A program made the position numbers and the translations under genes. Below are positions 24,850 through 24,975 of a stretch of DNA of 64,000 nt, piece by piece (position 1 is the stretch's first letter; every line of letters begins with the position of its first letter). The notes beneath the pieces are model-generated. The model did not search any database, had not been told where the DNA came from, and was given only the letters and a program-made list of their open reading frames with translations. The stretch is from NCBI GenBank assembly GCA_905478165.1, contig CAJQHK010000004.1, forward strand, positions 27,557 to 91,556, given 5' to 3'. Source of the stretch: an uncultured Rickettsiales bacterium (GTDB taxonomy: Bacteria > Pseudomonadota > Alphaproteobacteria > Rickettsiales > UBA1997).

Positions 24850-24975
24850 CCACCCCCACCAAAATCCTTACAGGATTTTGACTCCCCCGTAAGGGGAGTT
24901 AAGCCAGGTGCAAATTAATGATACCAACTCCCCTTACGGGGGAGTCAAAGTTGCAAAGCAACTTTGGTGGGGGTA
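24850..24975. repeat. GC-rich nested perfect palindrome (about 125 bp), MITE/RPE-like element or structured RNA
   Basis: 12 bp at 24852-24863 (ACCCCCACCAAA) pair perfectly with 24963-24974. 24 bp at 24877-24900 (TTTGACTCCCCCGTAAGGGGAGTT) pair perfectly with 24926-24949. Each arm also carries its own local hairpins (ATCCT-TAC-AGGAT, CTCCCC-CGTAA-GGGGAG, GTTGC-AAA-GCAAC). Confidence 0.75.

Follow-up and report, generated by a model that had tools for sequence, protein, structure and literature searches.

A palindrome of two inverted BoxC-like repeat units beside trmB in a Rickettsiales-like genome, and the association of its family with DUF559 nuclease genes

We analysed a stretch of 64,000 nt from an uncultured Rickettsiales bacterium (contig CAJQHK010000004.1 of assembly GCA_905478165.1, positions 27,557 to 91,556; hereafter the window), which has a GC content of about 30%, and followed up a GC-rich palindromic element that lies in it between 24852 and 24974. 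The genes of the window suggest an uncultured marine alphaproteobacterium of a Rickettsiales-like kind, with Tara and ENA as the sources of the TrmB relatives. On the minus strand, the order at this locus is argS, a SPOR-domain gene, trmB, an AT-rich hairpin with a T5 run, the element, a promoter and an orphan gene of 615 amino acids. The presence of trmB as a neighbour, already named in an earlier note made from the sequence alone, was confirmed by a match to TIGR00091 with 129 bits against a cut-off of 112.65. The 615-aa product (22898-24745, minus strand) belongs to no Pfam family and has only five relatives in the databases. The element is composed of two stems and a centre, and each arm carries a side hairpin of its own. 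The parts are given here with their positions in the window:

24775-24803, minus strand: sigma-70-type promoter of the orphan gene (TTGACA, 17 nt, TATAAT, with the TG of an extended -10 region), just outside the element
24820-24851, no strand assigned: AT-rich terminal module on the orphan-gene side, ATAATACATTTAGATTTATATTTATGGCATCC, part of the repeat unit in the AT-rich subfamily
24852-24863, plus strand: left outer stem, 12 nt, 100% complementary to 24963-24974 and containing the C-box ACCCCCACC, which is the third-strand block in its pyrimidine version
24860-24868/24872-24880, plus strand: left side hairpin (hairpin 1), CAAAATCCT-tac-AGGATTTTG, the variable linker of the module
24877-24900/24926-24949, no strand assigned: inner stem, 24 nt, 100% complementary, with 25 nt between the arms
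24881-24899, plus strand: left hairpin 2, ACTCCCC-cgtaa-GGGGAGT, with a GANTC site (GACTC) inside
24901-24925, no strand assigned: AT-rich centre of 25 nt, AAGCCAGGTGCAAATTAATGATACC
24927-24945, plus strand: right hairpin 2, ACTCCCC-ttacg-GGGGAGT, with the purine strand GGGGGAG at 24938-24944
24946-24954/24958-24966, plus strand: right side hairpin (hairpin 1'), CAAAGTTGC-aaa-GCAACTTTG, with a stem sequence wholly unlike the left one
24963-24974, plus strand: right outer stem, containing the G-box GGTGGGGG at 24966-24973, a candidate third strand
24979-25010, minus strand: AT-rich perfect hairpin of 10 bp with a 12-nt GC-rich loop, GGGTAACGGGGTG, followed by T5, directly after the trmB stop codon

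The palindrome is a real and statistically robust feature. Recomputing the pairings gave 100% complementarity for the 12-bp outer and the 24-bp inner stem around the 25-nt AT-rich centre, exactly as the earlier note had described them, and the side hairpins of the two arms (9 bp each) indeed differ in sequence. The CTCCCC/GGGGAG hairpins seen in each 24-mer were located at 24882-24898 and 24928-24944 and are the sole perfect C4/G4-armed hairpins of the 64-kb window. The claimed rarity of C5 and G5 runs in intergenic DNA also held, as only the four runs within the element, from a total of 15 in the window, lie outside open reading frames (ORFs). Both the 24-mer and the 12-mer were found in the window solely at the element (expected matches 0.00 and 0.15, respectively), and no further GC-rich inverted repeats were detected in these 64 kb. 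Folding, which had been proposed as a check, yielded z-scores of about -10 for both strands: the predicted RNA fold has -80.2 kcal/mol for the plus strand (z = -10.0) and -81.4 kcal/mol for the minus strand (z = -10.7), compared to -47.6 kcal/mol for the predicted DNA fold (z = -9.7), and none of 200 shuffled sequences reached the folding energy of the element. The predicted shape of either strand is a four-way junction consisting of the outer stem and three hairpins.

A family pattern, CCCCCACCAAA-N6-30-TTTGACTCCCC, was composed from the constant parts of the element, leaving 6-30 free bases for the side hairpin, and metagenome contigs were scanned with it; the contig loci fetched and compared with the window are labelled by L-numbers. 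The search for further copies revealed a module that is multi-copy in metagenome contigs and in relatives. It is present in at least 120 metagenome contigs with GC contents from 25% to 65%, so the element is single, as the earlier note had put it, within the window and not beyond it. The contigs listed hold 148 matches: 54 fall in AT-rich loci (GC content below 0.40), 78 in loci whose GC content is at least 0.55, and 16 in loci of intermediate composition. Among the GC-rich hosts, exact protein comparison put a name only to L087, a "Proteobacteria bacterium". The arm is laid out over 49 nt as the box (ACCCCCACC), AAA, 13 variable nucleotides, TTT and a hairpin of the form GACTCCCC-loop-GGGGAGT. 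As evident from an alignment of 125 distinct copies among the matches listed, the variable segment almost always forms a hairpin, and at four of its paired positions each of the four Watson-Crick pairs occurs among the copies. This covariation of the linker hairpin was apparent from 254 double-change cells versus 82.6 ± 7.1 in shuffled alignments, a count that was not attained in any of 500 shuffles; the score was 0.351, compared to at most 0.071 for slid controls. The stem of hairpin 2 is conserved across the family.

A covariance model, R1, was built from the 125-copy alignment and detected 209 arms in 527 kb of pattern-matched loci, about 60 of them without the exact boxes. In these further copies, which were not required to have the boxes, the boxes including CCCCCACC nevertheless recur with few changes. 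In the window itself, R1 recognised only the two arms of the element, with 69.8 and 68.6 bits. The resemblance to the right arm that had been proposed at 32060-32095 is due to chance: it consists of a 10-nt match (TTGCAAAGCA) with a score of 20, compared to 30, 25 and 21 for other stretches, and R1 found nothing there. Arms occur as singles, as direct tandem arrays (as in L103, with a period of 62 nt) and as inverted pairs in both orders. An AT-rich flank with the consensus ..TTTAGATTT..TTGTTGCATCYA adjoins CCCCCACC beside at least 15 copies at other loci, and the centre is partly kept in full copies elsewhere, with AATTTGCGTCTGGCTTAAC present in L028, L059 and L113. A second arm type with a CCCTCCCC box and a GACCCTCCC/GGAGGGT hairpin was observed in L137 (9600-10850 and 13280-13560); it forms hetero-pairs with the window type, and its box mirrors its own hairpin. 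The neighbours of the arms are ordinary housekeeping genes (142 ORFs, 157 Pfam families), and, by naive ORF calling, 19 of 52 arm-containing spacers lie between convergent, 27 between tandem and six between divergent genes. No match to the element was obtained in 72,556 plasmids searched by blastn or in 2.9 million viral contigs searched with three patterns. The exact 19-mer had two chance matches in 185,579 species-representative genomes, one in a Bacteroidales terminator hairpin and one in a coding site, and a literature search with sequence strings of the element retrieved primer coincidences only.

Comparison with relatives demonstrated that the window copy is a mosaic, as every module of it has a match of 92-100% at unlinked loci. 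The trmB-side arm, which contains the GTTGC hairpin, is identical in hairpin and boxes at the unlinked locus L082 (100% over 38 nt) and is also present at the orthologous locus of L018 and L130, whereas the other arm with its ATCCT hairpin has matches of 96% in L080 and 95% in L022. In addition, L022 matches positions 24838-24879 of the window at 95% over 42 nt, L082 matches the terminal module and the left stem (24826-24863) at 92% over 38 nt, and the centre together with one arm is 84% identical over about 100 nt in L059, L113 and L028. Because both arms copy one module, they form 36 perfect pairs, and the 13 differing nucleotides represent the variable hairpin of the module. Perfect complementarity alone therefore signals neither a recent inverted duplication nor selection for one long hairpin, and the argument of the earlier note, which had taken the perfect arms to imply recent insertion or structural selection, has to be changed on this point.

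Copies of the module were gained, lost and degraded among close relatives. The identical element was present in five contigs of the same species. In L018 and L130, whose trmB DNA is 86-92% identical to that of the window, the trmB-side arm is retained base for base, about 50 nt over the second arm are gone, and traces of the centre and the terminal module remain. At the trmB loci of relatives with TrmB proteins of 87%, 85%, 80% and 74% identity, the spacers measure 73-236 nt, keep the promoter seen in the window and lack arms. Conversely, L018 contains a complete 125-nt element directly beside a tRNA-Leu gene, where the window is empty (20702), and L113 contains a different copy at the tRNA-Leu site plus arms at two further sites, all of which are empty in the window. 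No target-site duplication was visible at the tRNA-Leu and trmB sites, where the flanks of the compared genomes are only 75-90% identical.

The earlier note had missed a mirror repeat, which relates the box of the outer stem to the purine strand of the inner hairpin. The C-box read backwards mirrors the pyrimidine strand of hairpin 2, and in the right arm GGGGGAG (24938-24944) stands antiparallel to GGTGGGG (24973-24967), giving seven valid purine-motif triplets out of seven, in the order of five G.G, one T.A and one G.G. The same rule applies to 12 sequence variants from different taxa, in which the non-C base of the box shifts together with that of the hairpin. These variants exhibit valid triplet runs of 6-10, and their own pairings beat all of 20000 permutations (20000/20000). 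Judged by its sequence, one DNA strand of the unit would in principle be able to form a purine-motif triple helix by turning back on itself twice, and the linker hairpin of about 21 nt would return the third block to the base of the duplex.

Repeats with this architecture are known as the BoxC/PIT/TM class (TM, triplex motif), in which a pyrimidine-purine hairpin is combined with a third block mirroring the purine strand, which would enable one strand to adopt a purine-motif triplex (PMC4666352). Besides E. coli, where they are called BoxC/PIT/TMECO, over 260 further genomes contain them (Holder et al. 2015, PMC4666352, which also cites previous work of Bachellier and of Hoyne and Maher). TM repeats are intergenic, known in a palindromic configuration and tied to local rearrangement, and palindromic inverted occurrences decay by small deletions (PMC4666352). 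Both they and the window family are built of three blocks, a pyrimidine and a purine strand plus a G-rich block in mirror image, are G/C-rich whatever the genome background, intergenic and multi-copy, and combine conserved stems with variable loops. Moreover, both occur as single units or inverted pairs, the pairs decay by small deletions, and the surrounding loci are rearranged among relatives. In our material, the module was multi-copy and mostly intergenic in variable surroundings, both in relatives and in metagenomes.

The Watson-Crick hairpin of a homopyrimidine and a homopurine block is present in both arms with 7 bp (ACTCCCC/GGGGAGT), and its loop of 5 nt falls within the published limits, which are 1-6 nt in ITxF and 0-10 nt in Hoyne et al. 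(PMC4666352). The seven triplets of the mirrored third block also suffice for the class, which calls for G.G:C and A.A:T or T.A:T triplets at 6-7 positions or more. The second loop of about 21 nt is itself a hairpin and lies outside these limits, so we filed the element as a variant and not as a strict member of the class; a hairpin-looped variant would escape the ITxF search, which allowed only 1-6 nt. The published E. coli consensus is CCCTCNCCC-N3-6-GGGNGAGGG-N3-GGGNGAGGG (PMC4666352), and when it was tested on the window arms, their sequence was found to differ. The window arm reads ACTCCCC/GGGGGAG/GGTGGGG instead of CCCTCNCCC/GGGNGAGGG/GGGNGAGGG, and its purine strand and third block are joined by a covarying hairpin of about 21 nt instead of 3 nt. 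Unlike the known TM hosts, the hosts of the window family are uncultured marine and freshwater bacteria, including a Rickettsiales-like lineage of 30% GC, and the family has an extra AT-rich terminal module. On these grounds, we file the arm as what appears to be a previously unrecorded hairpin-looped branch of a BoxC/PIT/TM-like class.

The decisive clue to the class of the element was that the E. coli DUF559 gene ycjD ends inside a TMECO copy. Its end reads CCCTCACCC-CAA-CCCTCTCCC-TGAAA-GGGCGAGGG, which is the BoxC/PIT/TMECO consensus on the other strand; two TMECO copies follow ycjD, and the copies beside it agree with the published TM consensus. The 1.3-kb ycjD region of the sapF-ycjD-fabI locus (L154; NC_000913.3, near 1351.0-1351.8 kb) was traced in 5426 complete E. 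coli genomes. Only 3372 of them contain 80% or more of it, about 38% are without an intact locus, and parts of the region recur at a median of four places per genome.

Near the arms of the window family, DUF559 (PF04480) genes are the sole recurrent oddity and were detected by tblastn in 7-8 of about 118 arm-selected loci, where they lie within tens of nucleotides of arms and often have arms on both sides. Independent DUF559 loci were then chosen by protein similarity alone. L141, a Pseudomonadota metagenome-assembled genome (MAG), has two arms and no more in its 20.5 kb, and these adjoin the gene at either end (E-values of 2.6e-11 and 2e-10). In L137 from the AT-rich lineage, about five arms are present on each side of the gene, and L142 (WOR-3) has weak arm-like repeats on both sides; the Deinococcus and Azospirillum flanks give weaker matches, too. 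Analogous modules flank DUF559 genes of cultured Sphingomonas, Azospirillum, Qipengyuania, Sinorhizobium, Deinococcus, Synechocystis and Picosynechococcus. The association thus extends over several phyla. The density of C4/G4 hairpins up to 250 nt from 13 DUF559 genes is 3.97 per kb versus 0.22 per kb elsewhere in the same loci, which represents an 18-fold enrichment (Poisson 2e-30). Furthermore, 49 of 120 DUF559 ORFs continue through boxes or hairpins that are thereby translated, giving peptides such as PHP..SPSRGEG, HPPLTPPLKGG and SSPLEGE, compared to two of 125 TrmB controls. The repeat thereby also explains recurring junk peptides at annotated ORF ends, e.g. ..PHP..SPSRGEG and PPLKGG.

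In L137, which belongs to the lineage closest to the window, an arm is followed after 40 nt by DUF559 and, 30 nt further on, by another arm and the AT-rich terminal module known from the window, with the DUF559 gene at the position that corresponds to the 25-nt centre of the window element. The window element is therefore colinear with a unit that carries the nuclease gene, the gene itself excepted. The DUF559 sequences match PF04480 and the structure of the Neisseria gonorrhoeae DUF559 protein (PDB 3HRL, E-value 2.5e-35), and the proteins encoded near arms retain the invariant acidic and histidine residues of the family. DUF559 has been grouped with Vsr and the homing endonuclease I-Bth0305I (PMC3424549). 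Like homing endonuclease genes (I-Bth0305I, PDB 3R3P; PMC3424549), DUF559 genes are small free-standing nuclease genes at variable positions, namely between operon genes (sufB/sufC), inside genes (IleRS-like, DUF1156) or in part of a species (E. coli ycjD), and target duplications are unseen in both. They differ in lying outside introns and inteins and in being bracketed by short repeats that far outnumber the gene. We found no paper linking DUF559 to repeats in a literature coverage that was partial, so an earlier description is possible; neither ycjD nor any endonuclease nor a DUF559 link is mentioned in the TM paper (PMC4666352).

Several such loci are described here. In L114 (1736-5320, also in L039), a unit of arm, DUF559 and arm of about 150 codons is inserted in frame within an IleRS-like ORF of 1194 codons; its arms are read as ..SSPLEGE.. 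and ..TPHQNSTNFDSPSRVEL..., and no intein motifs were noticed. In Sphingomonas parapaucimobilis (L146, 1180-1590; NZ_CP155753.1), the DUF559 gene lies between sufB and sufC of the conserved suf operon, with box-hairpin modules at both ends. A DUF559 gene adjoins or splits a gene with a DUF1156 domain on a plasmid of Synechocystis sp. B12 (L151, 534-2724) and on pAQ6 of strain PCC 7002 (L153); the order in L151 is an annotated DUF1156 fragment, then DUF559 and then a "hypothetical protein".

Known classes of mobile elements offer other explanations. As a classical MITE (a miniature transposable element with inverted repeats), the palindrome would be a deletion derivative of an insertion sequence (IS), moved by a DDE transposase that acts on the 12-bp terminal inverted repeats and creates target-site duplications. 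Its perfect 12-bp terminal repeats, its small size, its intergenic and multi-copy occurrence in relatives, its presence/absence polymorphism and the DDE_Tnp_1 transposase genes in related contigs (L010, L137) would suit such an origin, and bacterial MITEs (Correia, ERIC, RUP, Nezha; PMC10969869) are likewise small, non-coding, folded, intergenic and polymorphic in presence. The proposal of a recent MITE-like insertion in the earlier note is supported in part, in that we are dealing with a dispersed repeat family of lineage-specific presence, whose copies differ among relatives. Other observations speak against a MITE: no target-site duplication is visible at the compared filled and empty sites, with flanks there diverged to 75-80% identity, and no transposase family recurs among the 142 neighbouring ORFs. 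The expected parent, an IS with the ends ACCCCCACCAAA... and a transposase, was not found among the neighbours, and the 72,556 plasmids and 2.9 million viral contigs gave no match. Arms occur singly or in direct tandem arrays as often as in inverted pairs, the basic unit being a single arm instead of paired terminal repeats, the linker hairpins of the two arms are unrelated, and the same boxes occur in hosts of 25% to 65% GC without any IS carrying them. We therefore regard a MITE as quite unlikely. Membership in the Rickettsia palindromic elements (RPE), which share the general properties listed for MITEs, is even more improbable. The host is Rickettsiales-like, with a "MAG: Rickettsiales bacterium" as the source of the closest named TrmB relatives, the palindromic layout and the size of about 125-155 bp would fit, and the family member with a DUF559 gene in frame in an IleRS-like ORF resembles the occasional in-frame insertion of RPEs into genes (PMC10969869). 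The same module is abundant in contigs of 55-65% GC and in a Pseudomonadota MAG, however, and is therefore not specific to Rickettsia, and most copies are intergenic. An element of the REP/REPIN type (REP, repetitive extragenic palindromic), moved by a Y1 HUH transposase of the RAYT family (REP-associated tyrosine transposase), would account for the population structure, since the window family and the REP/REPIN-RAYT system (PMC3116915, PMC2817692) both comprise short GC-rich palindromic units in singlets, inverted doublets and clusters, occur mostly at the 3' ends of genes (only six of 52 arm-containing spacers are divergent, versus 19 convergent and 27 tandem) and include copies flanking a small gene for a DNA-cutting enzyme, the candidate mobilising gene. 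Yet the GTAG or CGTC tag is missing from the base of the palindrome and from the arm consensus (criterion from PMC3733652), the flanked gene encodes a DUF559 protein of the PD-(D/E)xK fold and not a Y1 transposase, no transposase family recurs among the 142 neighbouring ORFs examined, and REP sequences are species-specific, whereas the boxes of the window family are common to very different genomes. This origin is hence very improbable.

It also appears unlikely that the element represents a functional RNA of the trmB locus, i.e. a small RNA (sRNA), a terminator, an insulator or a stabiliser of the 3' end, with an RNA structure under selection. The very stable fold of both strands, the position after a string of co-directional genes and before the next promoter, the covariation of the side hairpin and a T-rich run after hairpin 2 in some GC-rich copies would all agree with such a function, but neither the window nor 17 family loci matched any Rfam family. 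The Rfam check of the window (Rfam 15) returned only miRNA-hairpin matches with 15-29 bits, far below gathering scores of 70-200, which we consider spurious, and ARAGORN called no tRNA at the element. Neither terminator-like sites nor a U-run are present on either strand; the count of such sites in 24650-25100 is zero, with AAAAAT as the flank on the plus strand and GGATGCC on the minus strand. Copies occur in both orientations to their neighbouring genes (9 on the same and 19 on the opposite strand), some copies lie inside ORFs and in frame, and relatives manage without the element at the trmB locus. In addition, the box mirrors the purine strand by a rule that fits a purine-motif triplex of DNA, which cannot form in RNA (PMC4666352), and PIT/BoxC elements have no promoter or terminator activity in E. 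coli (PMC4666352). The earlier suggestion of an sRNA or a bidirectional terminator receives no support, and the best reading is that the element is neither an sRNA nor a canonical terminator. Three further ideas were dropped as well. A retron msr-msd locus, suggested by flanking inverted repeats and a long hairpin upstream of an orphan ORF, does not agree with an orphan product lacking a reverse transcriptase or other domain and with the dispersed occurrence of the element. CRISPR-like direct arrays were rejected on account of irregular periods (53 to 105 nt) and of units that are whole arms. Mimicry of a tRNA 3' end by CCCCCACCA, or tRNA genes as targets, was rejected because adjacency was seen at only one tRNA-Leu site.

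We consider it probable that the element is a gene-less, non-autonomous modular DNA repeat made of two inverted BoxC-like units, whose spread was possibly driven by DUF559 proteins, and the window copy is most likely locally non-functional selfish DNA. Because the mirror rule fits a purine-motif triplex of DNA, the repeats would act as selfish DNA that is spread and homogenised at the DNA level. A DUF559 nuclease (Vsr-like, PD-(D/E)xK) would have the boxes or the folded structure as its target, for recognition or for cutting, and repair of the break from another copy by gene conversion, as in homing, would insert modules and sometimes the nuclease gene. Such a cut-and-repair process would account for boxes that hardly vary, for linker hairpins that have been swapped, for the absent target-site duplications, for the nuclease gene between boxes and for the reported local instability. 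Any effect on expression at the trmB locus, such as a block of read-through or protection of the 3' end, may be a by-product but is unsupported. More tentatively, DUF559 proteins might create, spread or maintain BoxC/PIT/triplex-motif repeats across bacteria, which would constitute a second partnership of the REP-RAYT kind, here between a Vsr-like PD-(D/E)xK enzyme and a DNA motif of three blocks that is able to fold. Under such a partnership, the window element would belong, as a non-autonomous member, to a hairpin-looped branch not recorded before; we regard this, too, as possible but less than probable.

Several points weigh against this interpretation. In the first data set, the boxes are conserved because the search pattern required them, so that the invariance of the constant boxes there is no evidence. 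The ORF calls in the fetched loci were naive. Two of the five independent metagenomic DUF559 loci (the Poribacteria and the betaproteobacterial one) gave no R1 matches and contain only analogous box-hairpin modules, as judged by eye and by a generic hairpin count. The orientation of the boxes around DUF559 is not uniform, as those of L141 and L146 point inward and those of L137 and L150 outward. No DUF559 gene is present in the 64-kb window, the stretch surveyed, and a partner nuclease in this organism is therefore hypothetical. The DUF559 gene might merely insert preferentially into such repeats or be retained near them. Finally, triplex formation by the E. coli motif was not detected in vivo (PMC4666352).

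BoxC/PIT/TM repeats are known in hundreds of genomes with their origin and function unexplained, and DUF559 is a very large family with a known structure (3HRL) and no known role. If the partnership were true, it would provide a function for this very large DUF family and for a repeat class that has lacked an explained role since the 1990s, and would explain the genome instability reported around triplex motifs. Two points are new, namely a branch of repeats whose loop to the third strand is a covarying hairpin, which would be difficult to account for if the folded single strand were of no importance, and a statistically strong association of repeats with DUF559 in several phyla. Because this association includes ycjD of E. 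coli, the hypothesis is directly testable in a model organism. The interest of the case rests on the family and the DUF559 link more than on the window copy.

Some further observations concern the trmB locus and the rest of the window. The promoter of the orphan gene agrees with the consensus at 12 of 12 positions and is kept in relatives without the element. It is conserved, unlike the gene itself, which is hypervariable: the counterparts in L007, L008, L010 and L012 encode 682, 623, 541 or 130 aa. The AT-rich hairpin at 24979-25010 (-4.7 kcal/mol as DNA) fails the terminator scan because it has too few G-C pairs. It is kept at the same locus of L018 and L130 and is treated here as a neighbour of the element, not as a part of the repeat family; the composition of its loop is odd for this genome. 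In L018, about 690 nt (3141-3833) take the place of 74 nt in the window (21779-21853), and no arm was detected in this insert. In one assembly of the same species (L016, 4001-4381), trmB was called as a fragment of 126 aa due to one extra C in a homopolymer (alignment column 392), which is probably an error of long-read assembly and not a pseudogene. The window region of about 1208-1930 is 75% identical at the DNA level to L137 (495-1219) and L047, and because this stretch of L137 overlaps a gene with a DDE_Tnp_1 domain, an IS-type transposase gene is probable at this position of the window.

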